Of a stretch of DNA of 64,000 nt, positions 17,503 through 57,638 are shown in pieces. Source of the DNA: Candidatus Omnitrophota bacterium (GTDB lineage Bacteria > Omnitrophota > Gorgyraeia > Duberdicusellales > 4484-171); the NCBI GenBank assembly GCA_024231025.1, contig JAAEQW010000120.1, positions 2,324 through 66,323 on the forward strand. The letters are read 5' to 3'. Numbering within the stretch: the first letter of the stretch is position 1; each line of letters starts with the position of its first letter. The position numbers and the translations under genes were made by a program. The notes under the pieces are model-generated. The model did not search any database, had not been told where the DNA came from, and worked only from the letters and a program-made list of their open reading frames with translations.

Positions 17503-17532
17503 CCCGACTCCCTTACTAAAAAAATCGCTCAT

Positions 17533-17568
17533 ATAAAAAATCCCCACAACTTAGTAGCTATGGGGATT
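17533..17568 (-). promoter_or_regulatory. intrinsic-terminator-like hairpin plus U tract in the 5' leader of the giant gene (possible attenuator, or terminator of the upstream HTH gene)
   Basis: The minus-strand RNA reads AAAUCCCCAUAGCUACUAAGUUGUGGGGAUUUUUUAU. A 7-8 bp stem (AUCCCCA/UGGGGAU) with a ~14-nt loop is followed directly by UUUUUU, about 30 nt upstream of the RBS/ATG at 17502. Coordinates are +/-2 nt. Confidence 0.4.
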
Positions 17569-17687
17569 TATTGTAGTGTTTTATTCGGTAACTGACTGCC
17601 ATAGCTCCTAAGACCTTAGACTCTTGAGTTTTGCGCCCTCACCTTTCGATGAGTTTGCCTTTTTCGCAAAAAGAAATAACCTAATTT

Positions 17688-24832: not shown

Positions 24833-25273
24833 TTAAAAAACGAGTCCGCCCCCGGGATTATTTTTTCTGCGCAAGCGACGTGACATTTCAGTCATCATTT
24901 GATAAAGAATCTTTGCAACAATATGCGCAGACTTAGTAAAAAGTTTGTTAAAATCCTGCCTGTTTATCTCCAGAAGAATAGTGTTCTCTGTAGCAATAAT
25001 TGAGGCAGTTCTAACAGCATAATCAAAAAGAGCAACCTCACCAAAAAAATCACCCCCTGCCAACTGTATTATTTCTTCTGCGTTTTTAACAACTTTTACG
25101 GCACCGCTTTTTATGATGTACATGCTCTCGCCCTTGGACCCTTCGGAAAATACTGTCATATCTGGAAGATATATTTTTTTAGTAAAAATCGGCACTAACT
25201 CTTCCAACTCGTCAGGATGTAGCAATTGAAAAACGAACAATCCTTGCAGATCAGCTGAATTTAGTTCTTCCAT
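24833..25273 (-). CDS. stand-alone cyclic-nucleotide-binding (CAP effector-domain) protein, 146 aa, no DNA-binding domain
   Basis: A cNMP-binding beta-roll with phosphate-binding cassette GGDFFGEVALFDYAVRTASIIA. The segment VFSEGSKGESMYIIKSGAVKV is typical of CAP/PKA-R type domains. Confidence 0.8.
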   Translation of the reverse strand: MEELNSADLQGLFVFQLLHPDELEELVPIFTKKIYLPDMTVFSEGSKGESMYIIKSGAVKVVKNAEEIIQLAGGDFFGEVALFDYAVRTASIIATENTILLEINRQDFNKLFTKSAHIVAKILYQMMTEMSRRLRRKNNPGGGLVF

Positions 25274-25443: not shown

Positions 25444-25896
25444 TTATATAAACAAATTGTCATTTTCAATATTCATACGCCGAATACGCTTACTCATATC
25501 CTGAATAACCTTATATAAGACCTTAACCCCCAGGCGCGGATGCTCTGAAACAAGTGCGCCAAAATCATCACGGATTATTTCAAAAAGCAAACATTCCTCA
25601 ACCGCAACCGCTGAAGCCGTACGCGGCACACGATCAAAAAGAGCAATTTCACCGAAAAAATCACCAGAATAAAGAGCGATGACCTCTCTCGTTTCCGTCT
25701 TAACCTTTCGAGTTATCCTGACCGTTCCTGAATCGATCAAAAACATCCCATTACTTGTTTCATTTTCCGAAAAAATTACGTCTCCAGCACTGAAACGTTT
25801 TTCTTTACAGATTGAAGCAACATTGTCGAGCTCATCTTCGGTTAAGAATTTAAACAAGAATACGCCCTTTAATCTTTCTAATTTGTCAGTAGTCAT
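25444..25896 (-). CDS. second stand-alone cyclic-nucleotide-binding domain protein, 150 aa (paralogue of 24833-25273)
   Basis: Phosphate-binding cassette SGDFFGEIALFDRVPRTASAVA, plus IFSENETSNGMFLIDSGTVRI. Confidence 0.8.
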   Translation of the reverse strand: MTTDKLERLKGVFLFKFLTEDELDNVASICKEKRFSAGDVIFSENETSNGMFLIDSGTVRITRKVKTETREVIALYSGDFFGEIALFDRVPRTASAVAVEECLLFEIIRDDFGALVSEHPRLGVKVLYKVIQDMSKRIRRMNIENDNLFI

Positions 25897-25936: not shown

Positions 25937-27157
25937 TCAAGCAAATTTTTTATTCGCTGTTGAATCTGAAATATATACGGCTACAAATGATAAAAGTAAC
26001 CAGAAAAATATTGAAAGCTTTAATGAGTAGAATTGCGTATCAAAAAAAGCACCGATCAAAAAACTTATCAACCCTAAGAATAAACCTAAATATCGAAAAT
26101 CAACTCTTCGTCTCAATTCTTTGTACCCTTTCAAAAGAAGCTCCCATAAAAACCACAGAAAAGTTCCTAAACCAAAAATGCCTGTTTCCGCTAAAATCTG
26201 TAAATAACAGTTGTGGGCATAATAAGCCCCCTCTAAGTTCACCGCGTACTCTTTTACACAATCCATAAATAGCCCTAACCCCCTGCCAAACAATGGGTTG
26301 TGTTTAAACATTAGAATTGCTGCCTTCCAAAGAACAAAACGTTGGGCATCACCTCCGGCATGAAATGTAAGCAGTAATTTCTGTTCAAAAAACGGTAAAT
26401 GACTAGTTACCGCCACAAAGATTGCCGCAAATATTGCTAAAAGCACTCTGCTTTGCTTATCAGCGCTAAAAGCAACCAACAAAATAATTCCCACTAAAAA
26501 CGAAAACCAACCCGCACGCGAATAAGTAAGAAGGAGCCCCCCCATTAACATCAAAGATGCGATAACTACTATAATTTTTACCCAATTTTTTTTACTCCTG
26601 TATAAAACCCCATAATTAATAAAAAACATTGCCGTTAAATAACTGGATAAATTATTTGGATTATAAAAAGTCGCACGAATAGCATTATTCGCAGAACTTA
26701 TGGAAAATCGCCTAATAAAATCAACGCCAACTATTTTTTGATAGAAACCGTCAATACAAATTAAAATCGAAGATGCCAAGAAAAGTTTTAATAGAAAAAT
26801 GACTTTCTTTTTAGTTAAAAATACCTGGGCGAAATAGAACAATAAAACTCCCTCGCCCCATTTAAAAAACCACGCAATAAAACTCTTTGAAGGCATCGGG
26901 CTAATCACCGTTGATACGGCAATTGAGAGGTAAAATATAAGCAAAGAAAGATTAATTTTATTTTGAAAAAAAAGTTTTGTTTTTGAAAGACTAAACCTGG
27001 CAAAAATCGTTCTCACCAAAAAACAAACAAGGATCGCGGTAAAGGAAATCTCAATGATAGCTGATGAGATCGGCAAAAAAAACACCAACACCACAAAAAG
27101 AAAAAAAGCTACCCTTTCCGCTTCTAAAACTATTTTATTCCTTAAGTCGCTATTCAT
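25937..27157 (-). CDS. polytopic membrane protein of the O-antigen ligase / Wzy_C family (406 aa)
   Basis: Ten or more predicted TM helices. The central LLLTYSRAGWFSFLVGIILL segment resembles the Wzy_C/O-antigen ligase conserved loop. Confidence 0.5.
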   Translation of the reverse strand: MNSDLRNKIVLEAERVAFFLFVVLVFFLPISSAIIEISFTAILVCFLVRTIFARFSLSKTKLFFQNKINLSLLIFYLSIAVSTVISPMPSKSFIAWFFKWGEGVLLFYFAQVFLTKKKVIFLLKLFLASSILICIDGFYQKIVGVDFIRRFSISSANNAIRATFYNPNNLSSYLTAMFFINYGVLYRSKKNWVKIIVVIASLMLMGGLLLTYSRAGWFSFLVGIILLVAFSADKQSRVLLAIFAAIFVAVTSHLPFFEQKLLLTFHAGGDAQRFVLWKAAILMFKHNPLFGRGLGLFMDCVKEYAVNLEGAYYAHNCYLQILAETGIFGLGTFLWFLWELLLKGYKELRRRVDFRYLGLFLGLISFLIGAFFDTQFYSLKLSIFFWLLLSFVAVYISDSTANKKFA

Positions 27158-27161
27158 AAAA

Positions 27162-28988
27162 TTATACCCGATCCGAAGAACAATAGTGCGGGACCAATTC
27201 TTTAATTATTTTTACAGTTTTTTCTGCATCCATTTTACCGGCAAGCGATTCAAGCTCTTTTATCTTCATCTGTAGTTTTCTTGAATCAAAATCATTAGGT
27301 TGAGCAATATATATCTTATCGTGCTTGGTTGTTTTATCCTCTTCAGCATTGTGCAGCATCTCTTCATACAATTTTTCGCCCCGACGCAGCCCAATAAACT
27401 CTATCGCGATATCCTCATCCGGCCTTAAGCCCGATAACGTAATTAATTCCTTGGCTAGATCAACTATTTTTATTTGCTCGCCCATATCAAGAATAAAGAT
27501 TTCTCCCCCCTTGCCAATCGCACCAGCCTGAATTACAAGTTGTGCCGCCTCAGACACCGCCATAAAAAATCTTCTAACCTCAGGATCAGTTACGGTAACC
27601 GGTCCACCGCTTTCAATTTGTTTTTTGAATATTGGAACAACTGACCCGCTTGAACCAATAACATTACCAAATCTTACTGCCATGAACTTTGTTTTAGCAG
27701 TTTTTGCTTTAGCTTGAATTTGCATTTCGGCAATACGTTTGGATGCTCCCATAATATTTGTTGGATGCACCGCTTTGTCGCTAGAGATCATAACAAAGCT
27801 TTCTACCTTGTAGTGCTCAGCGGCATACATAAAATTTCTTGTTCCGATAATATTATTCTTTACCGCAGCAATCGGGTTGCTTTCCATAAGCGGTACATGT
27901 TTATGCGCAGCAGAATGAAAAACTATTTTTGGTTTATGTTTTGTGAATGTATGCTTTAGCAAGCCAATGTCTTTAACGTCACCAATTATGGCCTCTATTT
28001 TTAAATCAGGATATTTATTGCGCAGTTCCAGCTCTAAGAAGTAAGTATCGTTTTCATTATAATCATACATTATGAGTTTAGCCGGATTGAACTTGCCTAT
28101 TTGCTTACATAGCTCACTGCCGATAGTTCCACCAGCACCGGTAACTAAAACCACTTTATTCTTTATAAAAGATGTTACTCCTTCGGTTTCGATAGTTACT
28201 GTTTCGCGACCCAAAAGATCAGCCGGGCGAACATCTCTAATTTGCCGAACGGTTACTTCTCCGGTTAATATCTTATGCAATGCAGGAACTATCTTTATTG
28301 CAGTTTCTGTATTTGCGCACTTGGATATGATATCTCTTATTAACTTCCCTCGAGCTGAAGGAATCGCAATAATTATATCGGTCGCTTCATATTTTTTTAC
28401 AATCTCTTCAATATCGGCAATCACACCCAATACTTTTATTCCCTGGATACGCGAATATGTCTTACGCCGATCATCATCAACAAATCCAACCGGTTGATAA
28501 ATTGTGCTTTTAGCGTTAATTAGCTCTCGCACAACCATTTCCCCTGCTGAACCGGCACCCACAATGATTGCTCGGCGCATATTGCAATAACGAGATTGCT
28601 TTATGCTGATCAACACTCTTGGTAAAAACCGCGACGTTGCCATAAGAAAAAGGCAGATAAGGTAATCAATCAGCAACACTGACCGGGTCATCATTTTATG
28701 CTGCGTAAAAAATACTACAACCACCAACAATAAGCTTCCAAGCGTGGTGGCCTTTACAATATTGGTTGCTTCACTAATACTGGCGTACCTAAACGACCAG
28801 CGATACATCCCGCAACAATAAAACATTATAATTCTTATACCGCTTGCCCAAAGTAAAAAAGAAACATACGCCCCAACAAGCACTTCTAAATTCCAATCAA
28901 AGCGAATCATAAAGGCTAAGAATAGCGAGATACTAATCAAAATAATATCAACTATCATCATCACCAATTTTCTTGTAGCTAATAACAT
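27162..28988 (-). CDS. membrane-anchored UDP-sugar 4,6-dehydratase of the CapD/PglF/WbpM family (608 aa)
   Basis: Four N-terminal TM helices, then a Rossmann domain (IIVGAGSAGEMVVREL), then an SDR dehydratase domain (VLVTGAGGTIGSELCKQI ... MISSDKAVHPTNIMGASKRIAE). Confidence 0.85.
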   Translation of the reverse strand: MLLATRKLVMMIVDIILISISLFLAFMIRFDWNLEVLVGAYVSFLLWASGIRIIMFYCCGMYRWSFRYASISEATNIVKATTLGSLLLVVVVFFTQHKMMTRSVLLIDYLICLFLMATSRFLPRVLISIKQSRYCNMRRAIIVGAGSAGEMVVRELINAKSTIYQPVGFVDDDRRKTYSRIQGIKVLGVIADIEEIVKKYEATDIIIAIPSARGKLIRDIISKCANTETAIKIVPALHKILTGEVTVRQIRDVRPADLLGRETVTIETEGVTSFIKNKVVLVTGAGGTIGSELCKQIGKFNPAKLIMYDYNENDTYFLELELRNKYPDLKIEAIIGDVKDIGLLKHTFTKHKPKIVFHSAAHKHVPLMESNPIAAVKNNIIGTRNFMYAAEHYKVESFVMISSDKAVHPTNIMGASKRIAEMQIQAKAKTAKTKFMAVRFGNVIGSSGSVVPIFKKQIESGGPVTVTDPEVRRFFMAVSEAAQLVIQAGAIGKGGEIFILDMGEQIKIVDLAKELITLSGLRPDEDIAIEFIGLRRGEKLYEEMLHNAEEDKTTKHDKIYIAQPNDFDSRKLQMKIKELESLAGKMDAEKTVKIIKELVPHYCSSDRV

Positions 28989-30001
28989 TTTTTCTCTTTC
29001 TCTTTAAAGGTTACCCATAAACTCAATGCCGACAAAACCGCAATTGCACTAAACGAAACTATAATTTTTAATACTGTCGCGGAACGTAAATACACACAGG
29101 CCAAAACCATCAATAAAACAAACACCAAAGAAAGCGCTCCGGTAACTTGACCGTGGCTGTAGCCCAAACCAATTGCTCTTTGATAAAAATGGCTCTTATG
29201 CGCCTTATACCAAGATTCACCTTTAATCGCTCTTCTTATTAAGGTGATCACCGTATCAAAAACAAACACTCCCGAGACAATTACCGTTGGAACCAATAGC
29301 TGTTCATGGGTTATAGCCATAAAAGCTATATAAAATCCTAAAAAATAACTGCCGACATCGCCCATAAATATTTTAGCCGGAGGATAGTTTAAAATAAGAA
29401 ATCCCGCTGTCGGCGCACAGATTGCAATACCGATGGGAATTAGATTTACTTCTTTTGAAATAAAACCAAAAAATACAAAAAAACATCCAACAGCTATTGC
29501 CTGGATCGCAGTTAAGCCATCGATACCGTCCATAAAATTATAAAAATTAGTTAGGCTAACCACCCAAAGAACAATAAAAAACGGCAATAAAAAACTCAAA
29601 TTCACATTAAAACCTAGAATATCAATCGAAGGCAAAATGCCTAAAGCAAAAACTACCGCAGCAGCCACAACTATTTGTAAGATAATTCGAATTAACGCGG
29701 GAATATGCGTGCGATCGCTATACAAACCAATTACGCTAATTGCCACCGCTCCAAGTGTAATTGTTAAATATTTACCGTAAAGAAGAGGGAAATCAAAAAA
29801 ATGCATCCCAAAAACTACCGCCAACGCACCAACAACTATCCCTAAACCACCCCCCTTTGGCGTAGGTCTAAAATGGGAACTTCTTTCGTTGGGCATGTCA
29901 ATTAAACCAAACCTTTTTGATTTTCTTATCAACCATGATCCAACCAATAGGGATAATAACCCACCTAAAAAAACCACAAGTAGGATGCCCATATAACTCA
30001 C
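28979..30001 (-). CDS. polyprenyl-phosphate HexNAc-1-phosphate transferase (WecA/WbpL/MraY superfamily initiating transferase), 340 aa
   Basis: FYNFMDGIDGLTAIQA carries the DGIDGL motif diagnostic of the PNPT family. The protein has ~10 TM helices. Confidence 0.85.
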   Translation of the reverse strand: MSYMGILLVVFLGGLLSLLVGSWLIRKSKRFGLIDMPNERSSHFRPTPKGGGLGIVVGALAVVFGMHFFDFPLLYGKYLTITLGAVAISVIGLYSDRTHIPALIRIILQIVVAAAVVFALGILPSIDILGFNVNLSFLLPFFIVLWVVSLTNFYNFMDGIDGLTAIQAIAVGCFFVFFGFISKEVNLIPIGIAICAPTAGFLILNYPPAKIFMGDVGSYFLGFYIAFMAITHEQLLVPTVIVSGVFVFDTVITLIRRAIKGESWYKAHKSHFYQRAIGLGYSHGQVTGALSLVFVLLMVLACVYLRSATVLKIIVSFSAIAVLSALSLWVTFKEKEKKCY

Positions 30002-30026: not shown

Positions 30027-30719
30027 TCAAGTATTGTTGAGATATTTCTCAACAGTGTCTAGCCCTTCGGGGACTCCCATGTCAAAAAATCTTTGACTTG
30101 TGGGAAAGGAGGTAAACTGACAATTTTCAATAAGTTGAGGAAAAATTTCCTCTTCCAATGAGCACATCTTTTTCTTGGGTATTAGGTTGACTATACTTCT
30201 TTTAAAAACAGCTACTCCGGCATTTATATGCGTATTATTGCTGTCATTTTTACCACAACCGATCACTTGATTATTACGACAAGTAATGTTACTTGGTCCT
30301 ACCTTCTTTTTGTTGTCATAGGCAACGACCATTGCATCTTTTTTGCTTTTATGAAAACTCTCTACTAGCTTAAAGTAATCTACTATCGTAATAGTATCAC
30401 CGTTCAGTAAGATAAATTCATCATTTAGTTTACTCTTAGCGTTTCTTAATGCTCCTGCGGTTCCCAATTGATTTTTTTCATAACAATAACTTATTTTTAG
30501 CCCTAATTTCTTACCATCTCCAAAGTGCGATTCAATTTTATCCCCTAAATAACTCACCAGAAGTAAAATATCATTGATTTTTTGTCGTTGCAGAAGAATA
30601 AGAAGATGTTCCAGGAAAGGCTTCCCGCAAACCTTAATCATCGGTTTAGGGGTATTGTCAGTTACGGGATTAAGACGACTACCCCTGCCGCCAGCAAGAA
30701 TTACTGCCTGAATATTCAT
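30027..30719 (-). CDS. short sugar-1-phosphate nucleotidyltransferase (HddC/RmlA-short type), 230 aa
   Basis: N-terminal MNIQAVILAGGRGSRLNPVTDNTPKPMIKVCGKPFLEHLL is the NTP_transferase G-x-G-x-R-L signature. The size fits D-glycero-D-manno-heptose-1-P guanylyltransferase-like enzymes. Confidence 0.7.
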   Translation of the reverse strand: MNIQAVILAGGRGSRLNPVTDNTPKPMIKVCGKPFLEHLLILLQRQKINDILLLVSYLGDKIESHFGDGKKLGLKISYCYEKNQLGTAGALRNAKSKLNDEFILLNGDTITIVDYFKLVESFHKSKKDAMVVAYDNKKKVGPSNITCRNNQVIGCGKNDSNNTHINAGVAVFKRSIVNLIPKKKMCSLEEEIFPQLIENCQFTSFPTSQRFFDMGVPEGLDTVEKYLNNT

Positions 30720-30738
30720 AAAGGGGTCAAATCTGTAT

Positions 30739-31701
30739 TTACAACATAACAGTCTTCATCTCTAAATTATTAACAACACTATCGTATTCCTTATCGTCCT
30801 TTATCTTTCGGTAAGATCTACTAATTGTTTCTGTCGATACTTCCAACTCTTTTGCGATATCAACATTTTGAAAATTTAGTTTTTCTCTACAATAACGCAC
30901 GACAAAACTTCTTACCTTACAATATTCATTTTGCTTGCTGTTGTATTGTTCTAATGTCATTCCAAAACATCTCAAAAACATATTTAATACATCTACTATC
31001 AACTTGGCAGGTAAACCATCCTTTAGCTCCTGCGATGAGATCTCAGATAAATCCTTTCCGAAAATAATTTGCTTGACCCTCTCTTTAAACGTATCGCTAC
31101 CTAAAACAGACGGCCAATTCGACCCTTTTAAGCGTTTTTCAAAGTCCTCTGATGCATTTCCGTGCACACATAGATTATATTCTTTCATCGCTATTTTTTT
31201 ATACTTTCCGAAATAAGATAATGCTTCATCAACACAGAACCAATTAGGCTGTTTTTCTTTACTTCCATGGTAATACTTATGGCTACTCCACTCATATATG
31301 CCTAATTTTCGTTCTAATCCTGCTTTAATTGGGTTACAGTGAATATAGCAAATGCATTCCTTAAAATAATTATCTCCATCAATTAGAATTGACTTATACC
31401 TTCCTTTAAATAATGCACCTTCCAGTTTATGTTTTTTGTTTATTTTTTGGGTATATACACCATTGATATGACGCATAACTCTTGAAATATTTGCCTCAGG
31501 AGTACTTAAAAGCAAGTGATAATGATTTGGCATCAAGCAGTACGAATATATTTTTGCATGAAATAATTTAAAAGCTTCGGAAAGAACCGATAAGAACAAA
31601 TACCGATCACCGTCGTCGATGAAAATATTTTCACGACGGCGACCGCGATTCATTACGTGATAAATAGCATCTTTATATTCTACCCTTAACGGACGTGACA
31701 T
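30739..31701 (-). CDS. IS200-like Y1 (HUH) transposase domain fused to a DnaA C-terminal-like HTH domain (320 aa); likely a domesticated transposase-derived protein
   Basis: The N-terminal 150 aa read AIYHVMNRGRRRENIF...YCLMPNHYHLLLSTPE...YIHCNPIKAGL, which gives the HxH motif and catalytic Tyr region of the IS200/RAYT family. The C-terminal region reads ...NVDIAKELEVSTETISRSYRKIK (a DnaA_C-like helix-turn-helix). Only 19 and 30 nt separate it from neighbouring genes, and no flanking inverted repeats or REP elements were seen. Confidence 0.65.
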   Translation of the reverse strand: MSRPLRVEYKDAIYHVMNRGRRRENIFIDDGDRYLFLSVLSEAFKLFHAKIYSYCLMPNHYHLLLSTPEANISRVMRHINGVYTQKINKKHKLEGALFKGRYKSILIDGDNYFKECICYIHCNPIKAGLERKLGIYEWSSHKYYHGSKEKQPNWFCVDEALSYFGKYKKIAMKEYNLCVHGNASEDFEKRLKGSNWPSVLGSDTFKERVKQIIFGKDLSEISSQELKDGLPAKLIVDVLNMFLRCFGMTLEQYNSKQNEYCKVRSFVVRYCREKLNFQNVDIAKELEVSTETISRSYRKIKDDKEYDSVVNNLEMKTVML

Positions 31702-31731
31702 AAGGAATTATACCTTTGATATTATTCAATG

Positions 31732-32919
31732 TCAAGAATACAGACTTGACCCCTTTTTTTTAAAACGTCTTTCGGTCCTCTCCCAAATTCCTTTTTGCTT
31801 GCCTAGAATTACTTCAAAAAATCCAAACAAAAGAGCTAAATTGAGGTTACAGAAATAAAATGGTATGTACACCAAAAATGGCACTTTTTTGTATTTTGTT
31901 AAACATAATCCACATATAGCTGTAGCATAAAATATTATCTGCAAAAATAAAATATACCTATAAAAATTTTGACCGAGAAGAAAGACATTTATCACCAAAA
32001 GCAAAGCAAGAATAAATGGAGCCAACCACCTCAAGACGCGATGCGACCAGTAAATAAAAGCTCTTATCCCCAAAAGCGGGCTTAAAAGTTCTAATAAATA
32101 TCTAATTGCAATATAGTGACCTGCGCCATCACGAACATGACGCTTAAACTCTCCTTGTGTAGTCGGCGCAACATATTCATACGCAACAGCTTTTTCTTCA
32201 TAAAGACACTTGAATCCTCTCTTCACAATACCCATAGATGTCATGAAATCATCATTGATAGTTCCACAAGGTAAAGATTTAAATAAATTGCGACGGATAG
32301 CATAAATTGCCCCATTAGCCCCAGCAACATAACCTAACCTGCTTTCTAACATTTTTAATTGAGTTTCATAGCGCCAATAAAAGTTTTCCCCCTTACCGCT
32401 AATCACTTCATTCGGATTTCTATAGATAAGCCTTCCGCAAACACAACCAACTGTTTCATCGTTAAAATGCTTAATTAGTTCCTTAACAGACCGCTTATCG
32501 TATTCAGTGTTGGCATCTGAAAATATTACAATTTCTGCATCAATTTTCTCCATAACGCTATTGATTGTTTGTGCCTTACCCTGTCGAGCGCACTCTAGAA
32601 AATGCAGGCAATCAATATCACTCGCTAACCTACTTACTATACGATTTGTGCCATCATTGGATCCATCAGAAGCAACCCAAATGTTTAATTGTTCGCGCGG
32701 ATAGTCAAGCAACAAGGAATTTTCTATCTTCTCCGTGATCACCTCTTCTTCGTTGTGGGCAGCAATCACAATAGCAACACTAGGGAATTGGGAAATTGCG
32801 GCAGGCTTACTGTAAACTACAAACATTTTTACTAAAATTAACAACGAAAAGTAGTAGCCAAAATAGGTGTGCATTAACAATGCTATAAAGAACCAAAAAA
32901 CAACAACAAAAAAGTTCAT
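31732..32919 (-). CDS. membrane-embedded GT2 glycosyltransferase of synthase (processive-like) type, 395 aa
   Basis: N-terminal TM helices, a GT-A domain with a D...D...D pattern (IVIAAHNEEEVI, VASDGSNDGT, VIFSDANTEYD) and an HRVLRW motif at the QxxRW position. The C-terminal region has 3-4 TM helices. Confidence 0.7.
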   Translation of the reverse strand: MNFFVVVFWFFIALLMHTYFGYYFSLLILVKMFVVYSKPAAISQFPSVAIVIAAHNEEEVITEKIENSLLLDYPREQLNIWVASDGSNDGTNRIVSRLASDIDCLHFLECARQGKAQTINSVMEKIDAEIVIFSDANTEYDKRSVKELIKHFNDETVGCVCGRLIYRNPNEVISGKGENFYWRYETQLKMLESRLGYVAGANGAIYAIRRNLFKSLPCGTINDDFMTSMGIVKRGFKCLYEEKAVAYEYVAPTTQGEFKRHVRDGAGHYIAIRYLLELLSPLLGIRAFIYWSHRVLRWLAPFILALLLVINVFLLGQNFYRYILFLQIIFYATAICGLCLTKYKKVPFLVYIPFYFCNLNLALLFGFFEVILGKQKGIWERTERRFKKKGSSLYS

Positions 32920-32927
32920 GACTATTC

Positions 32928-34376
32928 CTATCTATTATTGCAAAAAAGATATTTAAAAAAAATTCGACCAGCTTTTATAGTTTTCCCTAATTCTTTGGGG
33001 GTTCGCAAGATACTAATAGTTTTATACGCTAAATATCGTGGGTTTAAATAATATTTTTTGCGAGCATAATCACAAAAATCTACTAAATCCTGAGCGCTCA
33101 AAGAAGCGGTATTTATGACGCAATTATGCATCCCGTCGACATCAAGCCAATCCCGAAAATCTTTGGCTATAATATGCTCGTTGTCTTTGGCCCATTGATA
33201 GGCCTCGGTGCCAGGGTAAACCATTAAGGGGAAAAACTGTGCCGTATCAGCGTTGATCTTTTTTGCGAATTTAAGAGATTTCATTAAGGTTTCTCTGGTT
33301 TCACCCATATTCCCGGCCATAAAGCAAGAATGCAGTAATATGCCAGCCTTTTTTGCATCCACAACAAAACGTTGCATCTGCTGCAGTGTAGTTCCTTTTT
33401 TAACATTTTTAAGTATATCATCATCGGCACTTTCAAATCCAACGACTATTAAGCGACAACCTGCCTTCTTCATCATAGCCATCGTTTCATATTTCAAATT
33501 TGTCCGACATTCAACTGTCCAAGGAAGCTTTATCCCCTTTTCAATCATCAACTCACAAAATCTCATTGTATGTTTCTGGTCAAAAGAAAAAGTATCATCA
33601 TCAACCAAAACTTCTTGCACTTGAGGCAGCTCTTTCTCTATGTACTCAAATTCAGCAACAATATTTTCTGGAGTTCTCTGCCGCTGCTTACGACCAAACA
33701 TTTTTTCAGGATAAACACAGTAGTTACACTGTCCATAACATCCTCTGCTAGAAAAAATTGAAACAACCGGATATCTACAATGAGCATAAAAATAATTCTC
33801 TATGTTAAGGTGTTTTTTATATACAGCAGAGACAAAAGGAATAGAATCTAAATCCTCAATAAACGGTCTGGCATGGTTATGGATAAACTTTTCACCATCT
33901 CTAAAAGTAGTTCCGGAAATATTTTTTATAGGCTTACCCAACTGCAAACTATCGGCGATCTCAAGCAAAGTCGCATCATATTCACCACAAATCACCCCAT
34001 CTACTCTTTTGTCTAAATTAAGCGATTCTTCAATAAGCGCAGATACATGGGGACCAGCGAGAACAACCACACAATTGTCAAACAAATCTTTAATCTCTCC
34101 AGCAATTTGGACATCATTGTATATACTCGGTGTTGAAGTATATAAAACAGCTATGTCTGGTTTAAAATCACAAGCTATATCATAGCAATCCTGTCTTGAT
34201 AAGCCATCGGCACAAGCATCGATAAGCTTAACGGCATGACCTGAATTTTCAAGTACACCAGCAGCATAAGCATGCCAAATAGGATAATATATCGTACCAC
34301 TTTTAGTTACTGCTGGGCTGCGAGAAAATCGAGAAAACTTTGGTAAAAATGGTGGATTTAGCAGTAATACTTTCAT
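32928..34376 (-). CDS. B12-binding domain radical SAM enzyme (class B rSAM), 482 aa
   Basis: An N-terminal cobalamin-binding Rossmann-like domain and a CxxxCxxC cluster motif (SSRGCYGQCNYC). Confidence 0.8.
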   Translation of the reverse strand: MKVLLLNPPFLPKFSRFSRSPAVTKSGTIYYPIWHAYAAGVLENSGHAVKLIDACADGLSRQDCYDIACDFKPDIAVLYTSTPSIYNDVQIAGEIKDLFDNCVVVLAGPHVSALIEESLNLDKRVDGVICGEYDATLLEIADSLQLGKPIKNISGTTFRDGEKFIHNHARPFIEDLDSIPFVSAVYKKHLNIENYFYAHCRYPVVSIFSSRGCYGQCNYCVYPEKMFGRKQRQRTPENIVAEFEYIEKELPQVQEVLVDDDTFSFDQKHTMRFCELMIEKGIKLPWTVECRTNLKYETMAMMKKAGCRLIVVGFESADDDILKNVKKGTTLQQMQRFVVDAKKAGILLHSCFMAGNMGETRETLMKSLKFAKKINADTAQFFPLMVYPGTEAYQWAKDNEHIIAKDFRDWLDVDGMHNCVINTASLSAQDLVDFCDYARKKYYLNPRYLAYKTISILRTPKELGKTIKAGRIFFKYLFCNNR

Positions 34377-35749
34377 AATTTTTTCCCTTTAAAAAATTTA
34401 TTGTAAATTTTTGTTAATATTTCACGCAATGGCCCCCGTTTTAAATTCTTATAGGCGTAGCCAACGGCTTTAACTAATAATTTATTCTTAAACCTGCTAC
34501 CAACGATCTCACAGAGCGCTTTATTGGCATAGTCATAATCCACCCCTTTTATCTTTGACTTCTTAGGATCCCTGCTTAACTTAGCATAATCGCGTTCAAC
34601 AATTAAATCATTTTCCCGACAATAATCAAAAAGATACGATCCTGGCATAGGTGAATAAAAACTACAGCTAGATATTGTTGCGCTTATTTTTTTCGCCATA
34701 TCAGCAGTTTCTCTTATTTCGTTATTGGTCTCTGTGGGTAGTCCAATCATGAAATTTCCCACGATCCCAATACCATGCCTGTGCAGAATCTCGGCCGATC
34801 TTAAGTTCTGCTCAACAGTAGTTCCTTTGCCAATGAAATCCAATACCCGCTGGCTGCCACTCTCGAACCCTATAATCACCGCTCGAAGCCCTAGCTTTTT
34901 TAATTCTGCCATTTCATTATCCAAAGAACATATGTTATTGGACCTGCCTTGAAGCATGACTTCAACCTTCTTGACTCTAGATAGTCTTTCTAACAACTCA
35001 AACAAAAAATCCTTATGTGCCAAAATGCAATCATCATAAAACATAATTGAGTTAAATTCAAAGTGATTAGCAATATTTTCAACTTCCCTTAAAACCTGCC
35101 CAACGTTTTTCTGACGATATTTCTTGCCATAAAGAATCTGCTCTGCAGGCTGACAAAATTTACAATTATAAACACAACCTCGACTGGTAATAATCGGAAC
35201 CATCGGTGGCTTTACGATGCCGCCATACAGCGAAAAAGAAGTTGAAAGCTTATAATCATAGAGACCAATATCCTCAAAAGGAATATCGTTAATATCAGGT
35301 ATCTGACCACGAACTAATTTCTGAAAACCATCAGGCTCACGAAGCAATTTAGGCAAGGTAATGTCTGCCTCACCAGTAAATACATAATCAAAATTATTAT
35401 TTTTTACAAAATCGTCGGGAGATAGGCTTGGGTGAATACCACCTATTATTACTTTAGCATCTGGCTTAATAGTTTTTATAATCTTTGCTGACTTTTCCAC
35501 AATCGGCACATCGATAGTGCGACAAGTTATGCCATACCATAAAGACGAATCTTTGCTTACTGCTTCGAAAAAGCTTTCATAAGAAGAAAGCTGTCGAAAG
35601 TCTATCAATGAGCAGTCAATCTTATCCTTTTTACATATGGCCGATATTTGGGATACACCATGATTGACCGCGCTTGACCAATATGAATTACCCCACTTGC
35701 CGATTCCATATTCCCCCAAAAATCCCGGATCAATAATAGTAAACTTCAT
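34373..35749 (-). CDS. second B12-binding domain radical SAM enzyme, 458 aa
   Basis: TSRGCVYNCKFC is a CxxxCxxC motif, and an N-terminal B12-binding-like domain is present. There is a 4-nt ATGA-type overlap with the upstream gene. Confidence 0.8.
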   Translation of the reverse strand: MKFTIIDPGFLGEYGIGKWGNSYWSSAVNHGVSQISAICKKDKIDCSLIDFRQLSSYESFFEAVSKDSSLWYGITCRTIDVPIVEKSAKIIKTIKPDAKVIIGGIHPSLSPDDFVKNNNFDYVFTGEADITLPKLLREPDGFQKLVRGQIPDINDIPFEDIGLYDYKLSTSFSLYGGIVKPPMVPIITSRGCVYNCKFCQPAEQILYGKKYRQKNVGQVLREVENIANHFEFNSIMFYDDCILAHKDFLFELLERLSRVKKVEVMLQGRSNNICSLDNEMAELKKLGLRAVIIGFESGSQRVLDFIGKGTTVEQNLRSAEILHRHGIGIVGNFMIGLPTETNNEIRETADMAKKISATISSCSFYSPMPGSYLFDYCRENDLIVERDYAKLSRDPKKSKIKGVDYDYANKALCEIVGSRFKNKLLVKAVGYAYKNLKRGPLREILTKIYNKFFKGKKL

Positions 35750-36846
35750 GAAACATCTCCAATCACAACATTCTTATTCGCTATAGTTTCATAGTAATTT
35801 AATGTATTATCTACCATAATAGTACTAGTAAAATTTTGTCGATAAAAATCGTATGCTTCCCCTATCACTTCTTTCGTCTTATCTTTATTAGAAAACACAT
35901 AGGATATCTCCTCACTCAAAGCCAGACTATCACCCACTGGAAATAAAAATCCAGTAACTCCATGCTTAACTAACTCCGGAATTCCTCCGGCAGTTGAAGC
36001 AATAACAATTTTTTTCGAAGCAAAAGCTTCAACAATCGTAATGCCAAAAGTTTCATTTACAGAAGGCACAACTACAATGTCCATGTTTTGCATTAATTGC
36101 AAAACATCGCCCCGAAACCCTAAAAACTCAACTTTCTCTGACAAACCACTCGCCTCAACTTGACCTAGAAGCTCTTCCCTTAAGGGGCCATCACCAATTA
36201 CAATACACCTATAGTCTATTTCCTTCAAACATTTTAAAGCCTCGACTAAATAACGCTGACCTTTCTCGGGCGACAAGCGACCTACGGTCCCAATAATAAA
36301 TTGCTTTCCACTTCTTTCTTGCCTGGGAATACCCACCACTTCTTTATCGTCGATACCCGAATATATCACTTTAACACGATTTGGCCTCATTTTAGCAACC
36401 TCAACAAAATGATCTTTGTTTTGACTAGAATTAACGATAATTCCGTCGCAAAATCGATGAAGCAGGTGATAAAAAAAAGGGTACACATACATCTGCCATC
36501 TCTTCATCTTTTCATGAATTATAGCATTTAGCAAAGTGCAACAAAGTGGGATCCGGTAAAAAATATTGACTAAAGCAAACAACAAGCTGCATCTTGTTAG
36601 GTAAGTATTTATTACATCTACCTTTTCTCTCTTTAGTATTCTAAAAATACTTTGGAGGCTCTTGAGCGAAGAATAATCTACTATATAACAATTAACTTTG
36701 CTAGCTTTTAGCAAATCGGCCAGCGATCCAGACGACACAACAGTTACAAGCTCATGCTCCCTAACTAACAACTCCTTAACGCAAGAAAAAAATACATTCT
36801 GAGCGCCTCCCATTGTGGCTGAATCTATCGCTAGTAATATTTTCAT
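35746..36846 (-). CDS. GT4-family (GT-B, retaining) glycosyltransferase, 366 aa
   Basis: C-terminal VVPSVNETFGITIVEAFASKKIVIASTAGGIPELV is an E-x7-E type GT1/GT4 motif. Confidence 0.8.
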   Translation of the reverse strand: MKILLAIDSATMGGAQNVFFSCVKELLVREHELVTVVSSGSLADLLKASKVNCYIVDYSSLKSLQSIFRILKREKVDVINTYLTRCSLLFALVNIFYRIPLCCTLLNAIIHEKMKRWQMYVYPFFYHLLHRFCDGIIVNSSQNKDHFVEVAKMRPNRVKVIYSGIDDKEVVGIPRQERSGKQFIIGTVGRLSPEKGQRYLVEALKCLKEIDYRCIVIGDGPLREELLGQVEASGLSEKVEFLGFRGDVLQLMQNMDIVVVPSVNETFGITIVEAFASKKIVIASTAGGIPELVKHGVTGFLFPVGDSLALSEEISYVFSNKDKTKEVIGEAYDFYRQNFTSTIMVDNTLNYYETIANKNVVIGDVS

Positions 36847-36847
36847 A

Positions 36848-37819
36848 TTAGCTTAACAACCCTTGCTTACGATAATGATCCGTAACATTAGATATTGCGT
36901 CTTTAATGTTAAAGGCCGGTTTCCAACCCATATCATTCTGCAATAAGGAAGCAGAGTAAATCTTTCGATTAGTTAGCTCTACAAGCTTAGCCGAATTGAT
37001 CGGCATACTACAATTCGTTAGCTTAGCAGCCCAATCAAGGACAGATACCAACATTTTAACCGGCCAATACGGTAAATGCATTATTGGCCTATCGTCAGCA
37101 ATTTTTTCCTTAATCGCTGCTATAAAATCGTTTAATTTTACAGGAGTATTTATAATATAAATATCACTGGCGACATCAACAGAAAGCAAACTAAAAATCA
37201 ATTCACTAATTTCCTTAACATAAAGATAGTTCAAATAAAATTGACTCCTGTCTCTACCAACAAAACAAAATCTGTTATTTTTAATTTTTGTAAATAAATT
37301 CAATAGGTGCTTTTCGGGATCATCTTCACCAAACACATTAGTTGGTCTTAATGTAATAACTTTTTGCGGATTCTGTTGAGAATATTTTTTAACTATTAAT
37401 TCAGCCTGCAATTTAGTCTTTTCATACGCATTGCCAGGCTGACAAGTCGTTTTCTCGTCAATCACGATATTAGCACTATTACCAATAACTCCAACGCTGC
37501 TTAAATAAATAAGCCTTTTAAGGCTACAGTTTTTTTCACAAGCATCAATTATGTTTTGAGTTCCCTTAACGTTAACTTGATAAAAAAACCGAGGATCATT
37601 TTTGCATCCAGCCATGTGTACAACATAATCAGATTGCTCAATGCCATGGTTAATTAATGATGTGTCAGATATATCTCCCTGCAAATAAACCAAGTTTTTT
37701 TTGCTATCTCTCTTCTGCCTAGTTAAAGCAACAAGACTGTATTCACCCTGACCACAAAGTTTTCTTAACATATGTTTACCGATAAATCCAGTACCACCAG
37801 TAATAAATATTCGTTTCAT
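36848..37819 (-). CDS. NAD(P)-dependent sugar epimerase/dehydratase (extended SDR), 323 aa
   Basis: MKRIFITGGTGFIGKHM is the GxxGxxG motif, and YEKTK is the YxxxK motif. Confidence 0.8.
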   Translation of the reverse strand: MKRIFITGGTGFIGKHMLRKLCGQGEYSLVALTRQKRDSKKNLVYLQGDISDTSLINHGIEQSDYVVHMAGCKNDPRFFYQVNVKGTQNIIDACEKNCSLKRLIYLSSVGVIGNSANIVIDEKTTCQPGNAYEKTKLQAELIVKKYSQQNPQKVITLRPTNVFGEDDPEKHLLNLFTKIKNNRFCFVGRDRSQFYLNYLYVKEISELIFSLLSVDVASDIYIINTPVKLNDFIAAIKEKIADDRPIMHLPYWPVKMLVSVLDWAAKLTNCSMPINSAKLVELTNRKIYSASLLQNDMGWKPAFNIKDAISNVTDHYRKQGLLS

Positions 37820-37837: not shown

Positions 37838-39118
37838 TTAAAGTTTTTCGGCTTTAAGGCAATTTTGAAACCACGGGAAAAACATAGGTAAAAGAGCCAG
37901 GCTCATCATAAACCAATAGATAACTGACTTCCAAAACGGAAAAATTACAAGAGATATGATCATGCCAATCAAAATAGCAACACAACCAAAAATGCGTTCG
38001 CGAAACTTATCGCCCATAGTCCTACAGCCTTTGACAAAAAATATTACTCCTGCAATGATAAGAGGCATCAGGCATGGTAAAAACATGAGCAAAACAGTAA
38101 TCCCTGATGCATGCCCCTCCGCTACAGGATGAGGTGAGCGTACGGTGCCCCGTAAAGCCAAACTAGCCGCTTCTCTTATGCCAAAAACTTGGGGCAACGC
38201 ATCTGCTATGTCATTCAGTCGAACAAACAAACTATATTTTATAGTGCCTAGACCAAGATTGTGCGTAAATAATCCAGGAAAGAAGAACGCGTACAAACAC
38301 AAAAAACACACCAGCATGATCGCTGATTTTCCAATCTCACTCCTTTGATCTTTAGACCCTTTGACTAAAACAAAGACGGTAACTATGAAAAAACCAACAA
38401 AAACTATCTTGCCCATAGCAAGAGCGACCATCGCAGAAAGAATTGCCGTACCGCCAACAACTCGATTGTTAGTCTTTGTAAAATGAAGCGGTAGAGCAAA
38501 CAAAAGAAATAAACTAACTAAAGTACCTGAGCGTAAAAGACCCGCTGGTCTAAAAACCCTTACATCATATGCTATTTGAGATAAAGGAGTAAACAAGGTT
38601 GACTGTACATCAGGAGCCCTGGCAACTTCATAGTAATGGCTAGACAATATTTGTGAAAGGCCGCCAACACCGGCGCTTTGCAATATCATCAATGGCACAC
38701 TCAAAAAACAAATAAACATCACCTGTTTATATATGATATCCGGCTTTTGGAAAGCAATCACACCTGCGGCAATAAAAATCATAACGTTTACTAAAAAAAC
38801 GTAACCCATAGAGCACCATGTTGAAGCAAATATTGTTGCAATAGTCTTTAACAATACTACGGTCACCGCAAGTATCAGTGGCCACGCTTTAGAGCGAAAT
38901 GCATAAAGAATAATGAAAAGAGCAGCCACATCATTAAACAAAACTACGATTTGGCCAATATAAAACGGCCTAGCCCACCCATGAGGCCCTATAACAACCG
39001 TCAAAAGAATGCCGGGAAATAGCCACCACATGCATACCTTCTTCAAATCATCTAGAGTAACAGCACCTCCGCCTTTAAATAAGTCTGATATTTTTTTAAT
39101 AAAGTTTTTGGAACCCAT
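37838..39118 (-). CDS. polytopic membrane protein (426 aa), candidate Wzy-type repeat-unit polymerase
   Basis: At least 11 hydrophobic helices and no catalytic motifs recognised. The call rests on position in the glycan operon only. Confidence 0.35.
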   Translation of the reverse strand: MGSKNFIKKISDLFKGGGAVTLDDLKKVCMWWLFPGILLTVVIGPHGWARPFYIGQIVVLFNDVAALFIILYAFRSKAWPLILAVTVVLLKTIATIFASTWCSMGYVFLVNVMIFIAAGVIAFQKPDIIYKQVMFICFLSVPLMILQSAGVGGLSQILSSHYYEVARAPDVQSTLFTPLSQIAYDVRVFRPAGLLRSGTLVSLFLLFALPLHFTKTNNRVVGGTAILSAMVALAMGKIVFVGFFIVTVFVLVKGSKDQRSEIGKSAIMLVCFLCLYAFFFPGLFTHNLGLGTIKYSLFVRLNDIADALPQVFGIREAASLALRGTVRSPHPVAEGHASGITVLLMFLPCLMPLIIAGVIFFVKGCRTMGDKFRERIFGCVAILIGMIISLVIFPFWKSVIYWFMMSLALLPMFFPWFQNCLKAEKL

Positions 39119-41595: not shown

Positions 41596-42825
41596 TTAAA
41601 TTATCTCTATTTCCGGATAGGGCTTTATGATCTTTAGCCCTTTATCCCTATATTTCTCAATACTTTTTACAATCTCATTAAAATAAGTATATGATGTAAT
41701 CAACAAATAATCAAGCGGCTGTTTGCTGAGCGCGTCTGAAGACGCTACTGGTATGCCAAGCAAAGGAATAAAGCGTTTTTGTTTGTTTATATCTGAGTCG
41801 ATAACGTAGTTAAAAAAATCCTCACCCTGATCGATGGAGCTTATCATGGTGACACCACGTGAACCTGCCCCCCAAGCCCCTATCTTTTTACCCTTGCTCT
41901 TTATCTCGGACAAACACTGCGATATATTCTGCCGCCAATCTTGATAACCCTTGGCAAAAGAATCAACACCGCTATAATCGGTGGCCAACTGATCAAGATC
42001 ATGATCTTGATCATTCGAACAAAAAATACGCAAAAACTCACCCTGGCTGCTCTCTATTTCGGTAACATTTTTCCAACCCAACTTCTTTAAAAAACTAATC
42101 AAATAATCGGATGTAAAATAATATATATGATCATAGTAGAAATCAAAATAAAGGTTATTCTCCATCAAAAAAGACACATTAGGCACTTCAAGAAATAAAG
42201 CCCTCTGATCCTGGGAAACCCTATAACATTTATTAAGCGACTCCAGATAATTTAAAGGATCCGATATATGCTCCAAAACATGTCTCAAAACAAACAGATT
42301 TATACTCTTACCTTCTAATTGCTTTTGTTGAGCTGGATCAAAGTAATCATTATGCACTTCTATATTTTCATATTTTTTTGCCATCTGAAATGTAGGAGAC
42401 GGCTCAAAGCCTACAGCTTGCTTGCAATAACGTGACATTTGTTCAAGAAAGAAACCATCACCACAGCCTATCTCACAAACGCTCTTACCTTTTAAATCCA
42501 TCATCTTTGCTACATCTTCGGCCAGCTGTTTTTGATAGTGCATAGACTGAGTTGAAAAAGACATAGAAGAATAATAGTCTGGATCCTTATAATCATGACT
42601 CTTTGCCTGCGAAGTAAAATAATCACCGTTAAAGACAATGCGACAATCTTGGCACATAACTATATCAAGTCCCGCACTTTGGCAGTTAACCGCTTCTCTC
42701 TGGCTTTTGTACAGACTCTGTGACGAAGCCGGCATCTTCGTTGCTCTAAGCAGCGGCTTAATGCCTCGGGAAGAACAAAAAATACACTTATCTATTTTTT
42801 CCAAGGCGCTATACCTTCTTGCCAA
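41596..42825 (-). CDS. NDP-hexose C-methyltransferase (TylCIII-like: Zn-ribbon + class I SAM MTase + C-terminal domain), 409 aa
   Basis: N-terminal CxxC...CxxC (CIFC...CQDC), SAM motif I VCEIGCGDGFF, and the ~410-aa three-domain layout typical of sugar 3-C-methyltransferases. Confidence 0.65.
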   Translation of the reverse strand: MARRYSALEKIDKCIFCSSRGIKPLLRATKMPASSQSLYKSQREAVNCQSAGLDIVMCQDCRIVFNGDYFTSQAKSHDYKDPDYYSSMSFSTQSMHYQKQLAEDVAKMMDLKGKSVCEIGCGDGFFLEQMSRYCKQAVGFEPSPTFQMAKKYENIEVHNDYFDPAQQKQLEGKSINLFVLRHVLEHISDPLNYLESLNKCYRVSQDQRALFLEVPNVSFLMENNLYFDFYYDHIYYFTSDYLISFLKKLGWKNVTEIESSQGEFLRIFCSNDQDHDLDQLATDYSGVDSFAKGYQDWRQNISQCLSEIKSKGKKIGAWGAGSRGVTMISSIDQGEDFFNYVIDSDINKQKRFIPLLGIPVASSDALSKQPLDYLLITSYTYFNEIVKSIEKYRDKGLKIIKPYPEIEII

Positions 42826-49171: not shown

Positions 49172-49807
49172 TTAATTATTTAACAAAAAATTTTGAACTT
49201 GGGCCATGTTATTAAATATTGGAACATCGTCTCTACCAAATGGTTTCTTGCTATCGCGACCAATAAAGAATGTTTCTGTATCTTGCGCACTCTTTAAATC
49301 CTCAGGTGTATCGCCAATAAAAACCATATCGCCCAGAGAAACGCCTTCTCGCCCTGCAATATCTTTTAAAGTATCAACTTTAACCCAGGGATAGGCATAA
49401 ACATCTTTAAAATACTTGGCAATGCCTCGCTTATTAAGTATGCGCATAAATTCATCTTTTGGATTAACTGTAGCAATATACATCGGAACCTTATCATAAA
49501 AATAATCTAAAAAATCCATTGCCCCATCAACATAGGGGCAAGCTATGATAGATTTTAAAACATAGTCCGAATATTGCGCACACATTTGATCTTCTAGCTG
49601 TTGAGTATATGTTTTATTCAGAATATGCTCAGTTATATATTTAAATTTTGTATACCTTATAGTTGCGTTGTTGGCAAGATGATAGCGCATTATCTCATCT
49701 ATCTTATCAGGATAATTTTTAAAAAGATCTTCGAAAGCCTTATCCTTTATACCAACAGACTCAACCAAAGTACCGTCAAAGTCTAAAGCTATAACCTTAA
49801 ATTGCAT
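49172..49807 (-). CDS. HAD-superfamily phosphatase, 211 aa
   Basis: Motif I IALDFDGTLV (DxDGT) and FIGDTPED (motif IV). Confidence 0.75.
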   Translation of the reverse strand: MQFKVIALDFDGTLVESVGIKDKAFEDLFKNYPDKIDEIMRYHLANNATIRYTKFKYITEHILNKTYTQQLEDQMCAQYSDYVLKSIIACPYVDGAMDFLDYFYDKVPMYIATVNPKDEFMRILNKRGIAKYFKDVYAYPWVKVDTLKDIAGREGVSLGDMVFIGDTPEDLKSAQDTETFFIGRDSKKPFGRDDVPIFNNMAQVQNFLLNN

Positions 49808-57622: not shown

Positions 57623-57638
57623 ATGTAGCCTGCCTTTA

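Follow-up and report, generated by a model that had tools for sequence, protein, structure and literature searches.

A widespread radical SAM clade sister to HpnJ, coupled to a membrane glycosyltransferase in Wzx/Wzy-type glycan clusters

Introduction

Radical S-adenosylmethionine (SAM) enzymes are known to tailor sugars in antibiotic pathways and in the head groups of hopanoids and archaeal lipids. We know of no case of such tailoring in ordinary bacterial surface-glycan assembly. Here we analyse two tandem open reading frames (ORFs), ORF A and ORF B, which encode radical SAM enzymes with B12-binding domains inside a glycan operon of a Candidatus Omnitrophota bacterium (contig JAAEQW010000120.1; the whole 64-kb stretch of DNA analysed is called the window). 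Sequence comparison places ORF A in a large, uncharacterised clade sister to HpnJ, and its gene is followed directly by that of a membrane glycosyltransferase of family 2 (GT2). Sugar-tailoring B12-domain radical SAM enzymes are already known; what is new is a widespread HpnJ-sister clade coupled to GT2 in Wzx/Wzy-type clusters. In the literature on HpnJ, MoeK5, cobalamin-dependent radical SAM enzymes in surface glycans and Omnitrophota, no description of this A–GT2 module was found.

We report, as direct observations, the gene structure and domain architecture of the pair, the A–GT2 synteny, the gene fusions, the sister relation to HpnJ and the glycan-cluster context. The reading that we tentatively favour, at a little below an even chance, is that A and B are distinct class-B-type radical SAM enzymes which would tailor a lipid-linked sugar, A through an HpnJ-like rearrangement and B probably through methylation. 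The core unit proposed is ORF A together with the membrane GT2 directly downstream of it.

Structure of the gene pair

The two frames and their immediate neighbours are as follows.

32928-34376, minus strand: ORF A, HpnJ-sister B12-binding-domain radical SAM enzyme, 482 amino acids (ORF list, Pfam)
34373-35749, minus strand: ORF B, accessory B12-binding-domain radical SAM enzyme, 458 amino acids (ORF list, Pfam)
31732-32919, minus strand: membrane GT2 partner of ORF A, 395 amino acids (Pfam, NCBIfam, hydropathy)
35746-36846, minus strand: glycosyltransferase of family 4 (GT4; Glycos_transf_1, 137.5 bits)

Together, ORF A and ORF B fill exactly the span in which a preliminary description of this DNA had seen two tandem, translationally coupled B12-binding radical SAM genes. 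The stop codon of ORF B and the start codon of ORF A share 4 nucleotides, read as ATGA on the coding strand, and the GT4 stop overlaps the ORF B start likewise in ATGA. Shine-Dalgarno-like purine-rich stretches (GGGA and GGAG) lie 5' of both starts, and GT2 begins only 8 nucleotides past the ORF A stop. Between 27000 and 40200, 12 terminator-like sites were counted, no excess over the 9.0 +/- 3.5 of shuffled sequence. The ORF list, the ATGA junction between ORF B and ORF A, and Pfam thus bear out the tandem overlapping genes and their translational coupling, and Pfam likewise confirms the flanking GT4 (upstream) and GT2 (downstream), which lie inside a sugar operon of about 40 kb. The CxxxCxxC motifs quoted in that description are present in both translations: SSRGCYGQCNYC is residues 209-220 of ORF A and TSRGCVYNCKFC is residues 188-199 of ORF B. 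Their cysteines, C213/C217/C220 in ORF A (residues 213-220) and C192/C196/C199 in ORF B (residues 192-199), are invariant across the A family and the B family, respectively.

The profile (hidden Markov model) check that had been suggested was run, and both proteins exceed the Pfam gathering cut-offs for B12-binding (PF02310, 32.1 bits) and Radical_SAM (PF04055, 29.5 bits). ORF A scores 54.7 bits for the former over residues 21-140 and 62.6 bits for the latter; the values for ORF B are 52.6 bits (residues 30-135) and 92.4 bits. A class-B-type architecture, namely a B12-binding-type Rossmann domain followed by a radical SAM barrel, is therefore confirmed for both. The two proteins are only 27% identical over 322 residues, which makes them distant superfamily relatives and not a duplicated pair. 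A recent tandem duplication is rejected on this ground, and the label of adjacent paralogues given to them earlier does not hold, as they belong to different subfamilies.

Kinship of ORF A to HpnJ

No NCBIfam model reaches its curated cut-off for ORF A or ORF B. For ORF A the highest score is that of the HpnJ model (TIGR03471), with 391 bits against a cut-off of 577.6, where residues 1-477 are aligned to model positions 1-467 of 472. The next-best family is BchE at 160 bits (cut-off 481), and any methylase model in NCBIfam gives at most 118 bits. The best matches of ORF B are weak and unspecific (HpnJ, 144 bits; MJ_1487 family, 109 bits). Homologues carry generic or wrong labels in the databases, such as ‘BchE’ (automatic JGI labels) or ‘YgiQ’. 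An identity as BchE (TIGR02026), which the preliminary description had named as an alternative, is ruled out by scores of 160 (A) and 96 (B) bits against 481; annotated BchE proteins are 24-26% identical to ORF A.

Genuine hpnJ genes were retrieved by tblastn from plasmid records, one in an hpnI-hpnJ-hpnK operon of Mycetohabitans rhizoxinica and one in an hpnJ-hpnI pair of Paraburkholderia graminis. The HpnJ of the real operon is 33% identical to ORF A over 480 residues (286 bits) and scores 102 bits against ORF B. In a neighbour-joining tree, the A clade, including a 48%-identical plasmid protein of Lawsonia intracellularis, is sister to HpnJ; further out lie families D and B, a MoeK5-like protein, family C and BchE. 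The A clade and HpnJ have in common 21 alignment positions that the other families compared seldom share, for example TSTPS..D at residues 80-88, W34, H349 and Q380. HpnJ has been proposed to contract the glucosamine ring of bacteriohopanetetrol glucosamine to a cyclitol ether, without methyl transfer (PMC9204698, PMC13459092).

The A family itself is large and widely distributed. All of the 120 best database matches to ORF A are 65-72% identical to it, bar one that is 100% identical (from a Candidatus Omnitrophica metagenome-assembled genome), and they come from Omnitrophota, Smithella and other lineages. An 18-member alignment of the family has a mean column identity of 80%. A scan of species-representative metagenome-assembled and single-cell genomes gave relatives in Melioribacter, Omnitrophota, Smithella and many Deltaproteobacteria/Thermodesulfobacteriota, as well as in Bdellovibrionales, Nitrospirota, Fibrobacterota, Bacteroidota (Sediminibacterium, Marinoscillum), Lentisphaeria and Marinimicrobia.

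The only cultured carrier found is Lawsonia intracellularis, on plasmid 1 (27 kb; locus L044, 9531-13099; L and P labels are our own for loci and proteins). In this cultured pathogen, the A-like gene (48% identity) and a class I methyltransferase gene overlap; a second radical SAM gene and four more methyltransferases come after them, and the locus further holds GT2s and heptose-type genes (HAD-IIIA, GHMP kinase, SIS). A GT2 orthologue directly adjacent to the A-like gene is absent from this locus. Among representatives of 50%-identity clusters, the A-like proteins P0370, P0375 and P0383 carry an intein with a LAGLIDADG endonuclease shortly past CxxxCxxC.

Coupling of ORF A to a membrane GT2

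The GT2 partner has transmembrane or hydrophobic segments at both ends, as judged by a hydropathy scan, and shows PgaC-like and Glyco_transf_21 matches. Among solved structures, 6yv7 comes closest to it (62.5 bits, residues 44-251); we take this to be a PcManGT-type minimal cellulose-synthase-like membrane GT2. The two proteins are alike in being small, membrane-embedded GT2 enzymes, but the match covers the catalytic domain only, and donor sugar and acceptor cannot be inferred from it.

Of the 18 distinct contigs with an A gene of at least 59% identity and sufficient downstream sequence, tblastn located a GT2 orthologue (44-61% identity) directly after A in 16, at a gap of 12-114 nucleotides. 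Behind more distant A-like genes, an orthologue follows in 5 of 14. The GT2 family is about as large as the A family in metagenomes and, by a by-eye reading, about 45 of the top 120 matches in the A and GT2 searches agree in the size of the longest contig. In Smithella, Omnitrophota and other contigs, one order recurs: (GT4), A, a GT2 of about 385 amino acids, WecA or Bac_transf, then a PglF-like gene, with Wzy_C and Wzx-type genes nearby. The A–GT2 pair lies at the initiation end of Wzx/Wzy-type glycan clusters, adjoining WecA/PglC-like and PglF-like genes.

Gene fusions link the same activities. Among representatives of 50%-identity clusters, P0372 joins an A-like radical SAM domain to a GT2 behind it, and in P0394 a GT4 precedes the A-like radical SAM domain; in P0365, P0400 and P0401, the A-like part is fused to a class I methyltransferase that follows it. 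The fused glycosyltransferase domains are 23-24% identical to GT2 and GT4 of the window, and the fusions therefore indicate a functional link at the level of families, not orthology.

These data also bear on the idea that A–GT2 furnishes a membrane lipid with a modified glycolipid head group and only happens to lie among glycan genes. GT2 is membrane-embedded and matches the lipid-glycosylating Glyco_transf_21, the P. graminis hpnJ-hpnI pair has the same order of radical SAM gene then GT2 in overlapping genes, and HpnJ and Cds, the closest characterised relatives in terms of the proposed chemistry, have lipid head groups as substrates (PMC13459092). On the other hand, the pair sits in many phyla between GT4 and the genes of the initiating phosphoglycosyltransferase and PglF, in overlapping or tightly spaced frames, and a GT4–radical SAM fusion exists. 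In addition, hopanoid and other lipid-synthesis genes are absent from the window, where squalene-hopene cyclase is not among the Pfam matches. We regard a lipid head group as very improbable.

ORF B and the slot upstream of A

Orthologues of ORF B are far fewer, with about 12 clusters at 60% identity or more, and three contigs that hold such orthologues also keep the order GT4-B-A-GT2. This order is seen in L001/L012 and in L002, and GT4-A-GT2 in L007, L030 and L032. A second radical SAM gene lies upstream of A in 13 of the 20 distinct contigs with enough upstream sequence. The slot directly upstream of A is taken by family C in 11 Deltaproteobacteria-type loci and by family D in two Nitrospirota/Marinimicrobia loci. 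Pairwise identity among A and families B, C and D is 21-30%. ORF B is, on these comparisons, one of at least three unrelated B12-radical SAM families that appear replaceable in the slot. We read it as probably a methylase.

B-like proteins (35-40% identity) occur in glycan clusters too, one of them ordered GT4, B-like, GT2, radical SAM. The view that such enzymes are rare for surface polysaccharides stands for characterised systems only; in metagenomes, the A–GT2 pair is very common and B-like enzymes are found in glycan clusters as well. A tandem pair labelled ‘radical SAM protein’ and ‘cobalamin-dependent protein’ was also noticed on an Eleftheria terrae plasmid (L050, 3627-12468), together with a PIG-L deacetylase, a WecB/TagA glycosyltransferase, a short-chain dehydrogenase/reductase (SDR) and two GT4s; the first radical SAM protein is 28% identical to A.

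Proposed pathway and points that weigh against it

In the pathway that we propose, WecA-like and PglF-like enzymes would make a polyprenyl-diphosphate-linked primer, to which GT2 would attach a hexose or hexosamine at the cytoplasmic face of the membrane. ORF A would then use a 5'-deoxyadenosyl radical to take hydrogen from the sugar added by GT2, which would be rearranged, by analogy with HpnJ most likely through ring contraction or a carbocycle-forming isomerisation and not through methyl transfer. A further radical modification could come from ORF B, with cobalamin-dependent C-methylation as the most plausible one, after which GT4 would lengthen the chain. Our inferences concern the substrate, the sequence of the steps, the reactions that A and B actually catalyse and their use of cobalamin.

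A bolder version, which we consider rather unlikely, holds that the A–GT2 module, common among uncultivated and mostly anaerobic bacteria, converts the newly attached hexose or hexosamine of the lipid-linked glycan to an ether-linked carbocyclic pseudosugar (cyclitol), much as has been proposed for HpnJ on hopanoids, and that the interchangeable second enzymes of families B, C and D would decorate it further. If so, the surface polysaccharide would hold, near its reducing end, a non-glycosidic link resistant to glycosidases and to acid.

Several points weigh against an HpnJ-like rearrangement. The function of HpnJ rests on genetics alone, and the enzyme has never been reconstituted (PMC13459092). 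ORF A is not an HpnJ orthologue, since its score lies under the curated cut-off; homologues of HpnI and HpnK are absent from the window and from 43 related loci (tblastn, with queries from the real operon), and true HpnJ membership was rejected on both grounds, at 391 bits for ORF A and 144 bits for ORF B against 577.6. GT2 shows no pairwise similarity to HpnI (BLASTP E = 1.4). The neighbour-joining tree is crude, carries no support values and was built without Cds, GenK and Fom3. The order GT2, A, B, GT4 is assumed. Two further points, the company that HpnJ keeps among methylases and the likeness of both proteins to a B12-independent dehydratase, each belong to a rival explanation.

According to the first of these, both enzymes are cobalamin-dependent radical SAM C-methyltransferases which equip one or two repeat-unit sugars with C-methyl branches. 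Both proteins combine a B12-binding domain with a radical SAM core. Methylation is the activity of most characterised class-B enzymes, the sugar-modifying GenK and MoeK5 among them, and HpnJ is grouped with the methylases Fom3 and MoeK5 in a similarity network from the literature (PMC9204698, PMC12931638). Moreover, a MoeK5-like protein is 28.6% identical to A (153 bits), and methylases (MgmA/QCMT, TsrM, CysS, TokK) follow AprD4 among the fold matches in the PDB. Yet A is nearer to HpnJ (286-391 bits) than to that MoeK5-like protein or to the NCBIfam methylase models. The iterative C-methylation put forward in the preliminary description is unsupported as stated: A and B are not paralogous copies, which speaks against iterative action, and ORF A is sister to a proposed non-methylating enzyme. 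The operon already holds a conventional nucleoside-diphosphate (NDP)-sugar C-methyltransferase (41596-42825) and several class I methyltransferases, and the fusions of A-like proteins to class I methyltransferases would be partly redundant if A methylated. Methylation by both enzymes seems to us unlikely, if worth serious consideration.

Predicted structures raise the other rival. AlphaFold2 models of ORF A (pLDDT 82, pTM 0.85) and ORF B (pLDDT 92, pTM 0.89) each show a beta-alpha Rossmann N-terminal domain; residues 15-28 of ORF A, a strongly conserved N-terminal motif, are modelled with low confidence. The full-length PDB matches of both models are all B12-domain radical SAM enzymes. Foldseek places AprD4 (6fd2) first for both, with a template modelling score of about 0.73, followed by the B12-dependent MgmA/QCMT, TsrM, CysS, TokK and OxsB. 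With AprD4 first and a mixture of B12 methylases and OxsB behind it, fold comparison cannot separate a methylase from a non-methylase. AprD4 has a Rossmann-like N-terminal domain yet binds no cobalamin (PMC12931638, a 2026 review), and as it is the best structural match, the B12-type domain alone is no proof of B12 use. No cob, cbi or btu gene and no cobalamin riboswitch lies within the 64-kb window. To our knowledge, no sequence motif is diagnostic of base-off, His-off cobalamin binding. From their domain matches, ORF A and ORF B are putative users of cobalamin.

One or both enzymes might accordingly be B12-independent, AprD4-like radical dehydratases, which together with the SDR would deoxygenate the sugar ring by 1,2-diol dehydration and subsequent keto-reduction. 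Besides leading the Foldseek ranking, AprD4, which acts on the glucosamine ring of paromamine, is also the top PDB sequence match for A, and an SDR is kept upstream in the arrangement SDR-GT4-B-A-GT2. However, the AprD4 family model (NF033070, cut-off 500) gives only 93.9 bits for A, in the radical SAM half (residues 195-434), and 39.7 bits for B, and both N-terminal domains exceed the Pfam B12-binding threshold. The Foldseek rank may simply reflect the similar compact size of AprD4, and the SDR is missing from most A–GT2 loci. We judge dehydration to be improbable and keep to the HpnJ-like rearrangement by A, with a putative methylation by B, as the favoured reading.

The glycan operon and the rest of the window

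From about 24 kb to 64 kb, all genes lie on the minus strand and have sugar-nucleotide and glycan-assembly functions. The features around the core genes are listed below.

36848-37819, minus strand: NAD-dependent SDR epimerase/dehydratase/reductase upstream of GT4 (Pfam Epimerase, 121 bits)
37838-39118, minus strand: membrane protein of about 12 transmembrane segments, no Pfam match (hydropathy)
30720-31756, minus strand: Y1 (IS200/RAYT-like) transposase, gene 30739-31701, 320 amino acids with an extra C-terminal region (Y1_Tnp, 57 bits)
30027-30719, minus strand: sugar-1-phosphate nucleotidyltransferase (NTP_transferase, 90 bits)
28979-30001, minus strand: WecA/MraY-family polyprenyl-phosphate sugar-phosphate transferase, the initiating enzyme (Glycos_transf_4, 121.9 bits)
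27162-28988, minus strand: PglF/CapD-like membrane-anchored UDP-GlcNAc 4,6-dehydratase (Polysacc_synt_2, 394.9 bits)
25937-27157, minus strand: Wzy_C family protein of O-antigen ligase, polymerase or O-oligosaccharyltransferase type (Wzy_C, 81.5 bits)

Several of these genes recur beside A elsewhere. The SDR, which has a weak HpnA-like match (96.9 bits against a cut-off of 367), has a 50%-identical copy at the same position in L001. The membrane protein at 37838-39118, probably a polymerase or flippase-type component, has homologues of 29-31% identity near A-like genes in L024, L030 and L032. Orthologues of the nucleotidyltransferase (38-40% identity) lie downstream of GT2 in L031 and L035. 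In most related loci, a WecA/MraY-family gene or a Bac_transf gene follows GT2, and a PglF-like gene lies 1.8-5.3 kb downstream of A; Wzy_C has a counterpart in L002 and L007.

The Y1 gene interrupts this order. It also matches REP-associated tyrosine transposase (74 bits) and is bracketed by a 20-nucleotide inverted repeat, AAAGGGGTCAA(A/G)TCTGTATT, at 30720-30739 and 31737-31756, whose outer arm overlaps the last GT2 codons; a degenerate third copy lies at 516-535. A perfect TTGACA-17-TATAAT promoter match is found just upstream of the gene (31735-31707, minus strand). Given the inverted repeats and the absence of the gene from this position in related loci, it is an insertion that breaks the A-GT2-WecA-PglF order and was set aside as a pathway member. 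Homologues of 31-32% identity lie directly upstream of A-like radical SAM genes in the Nitrospirota loci L038 and L041.

Further up the operon, the NDP-hexose C-methyltransferase at 41596-42825 (minus strand) is SAM-dependent, has a C-terminal Methyltransf_14 domain and has a counterpart in L002. The operon also encodes several class I methyltransferases, nucleotidyltransferases, several SDR enzymes and cytidylyltransferases. A sulfation module at 54900-58838 (minus strand) comprises an adenosine 5'-phosphosulfate kinase, a 737-amino-acid fusion of pyruvate-kinase barrel, PUA domain and ATP sulfurylase, and a sulfotransferase; the module suggests a sulfated glycan, and its pyruvate-kinase-barrel fusion is unusual. 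A dehydroquinate-synthase-like sugar-phosphate cyclase (60679-61857, minus strand) adjoins a CMP-sugar-type cytidylyltransferase, and a transaldolase, an HpcH-type aldolase and a HAD phosphatase are encoded further down the operon; the coordinates also listed with the cyclase are 61829-62491, 50551-51270, 49809-50588 and 49172-49807. With these genes, the operon may hold another, independent pathway to a cyclitol or higher-carbon sugar.

Just past the operon end, a CHASE2-domain adenylate/guanylate cyclase is encoded at 21420-24005 (plus strand), along with two small cyclic-nucleotide (cNMP)-binding proteins (24833-25273 and 25444-25896, minus strand), which could place the glycan locus under cyclic-nucleotide control. 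A c-di-GMP-I riboswitch (17584-17669, minus strand; 72.7 bits, E = 2.4e-12) is found directly upstream of an ORF of 5291 amino acids (1672-17547, minus strand). Very long proteins are reported to be typical of Omnitrophota (bioRxiv 10.64898/2026.06.07.730766).

Significance

In many phyla, the initiation end of O-antigen-like clusters couples a membrane GT2 to an HpnJ-sister enzyme that is strongly conserved (65-72% identity). If ring contraction or another change of the carbon skeleton does take place, the surface glycans of many uncultivated anaerobes would contain sugars that are not anticipated in current glycan analysis or in arguments based on glycosidases. Such sugars would have a bearing on recognition by phages and predators, on the persistence of glycans in sediments and on the dependence of envelope synthesis on the supply of iron-sulfur clusters and possibly of B12. 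The A family, being soluble and abundant, would also offer a practical route to the mechanism of HpnJ.

Comparison with known systems

Among known systems, HpnJ is the closest to ORF A. The two proteins are collinear over their full length, with the identity and the 21 common positions described above; the gene of each adjoins, and lies upstream of, a membrane GT2 gene, and each presumably acts on a sugar that a glycosidic bond links to a membrane-bound carrier. Unlike HpnJ, ORF A belongs to a glycan cluster of Wzx/Wzy type whose host organisms are not known as hopanoid producers; it is paired with a GT2 other than HpnI, and the HpnK deacetylase and hopanoid genes are lacking.

AprD4 is a radical SAM 1,2-diol dehydratase from the apramycin pathway whose target is an aminosugar ring; it shares with A and B a compact size of about 450 amino acids and the sequence of N-terminal Rossmann-like domain and radical SAM barrel. 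It differs from them in being only 14-24% identical and in lacking cobalamin, whereas A and B exceed the Pfam B12-binding threshold (PMC12931638).

MoeK5 and GenK resemble A and B as class-B radical SAM enzymes that tailor sugars but belong to secondary metabolism, not to cell-surface glycan assembly. MoeK5 acts on a lipid-linked saccharide. Families of the GenK/MoeK5 type have no curated model, and the sequence compared here, from pCLA1 of S. clavuligerus, is one that we call MoeK5-like by synteny only, assuming the moe gene order MoeE5-F5-GT1-H5-K5; the order on pCLA1 is epimerase, Asn-synthase, an ORF without a Pfam match (at the MoeGT1 position), Asn-synthase-like, radical SAM. On this synteny-inferred sequence, which falls outside the A/HpnJ clade, MoeK5 is more distant from A than HpnJ is (153 versus 286 bits).

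Cds, the calditol synthase of Sulfolobus, is likewise a radical SAM enzyme but comes from an archaeon and has the head groups of tetraether lipids as its substrate; it is likened to A by chemistry only and not by sequence, in that it has been proposed to contract a lipid-linked hexose to a five-membered carbocycle (PMC13459092).

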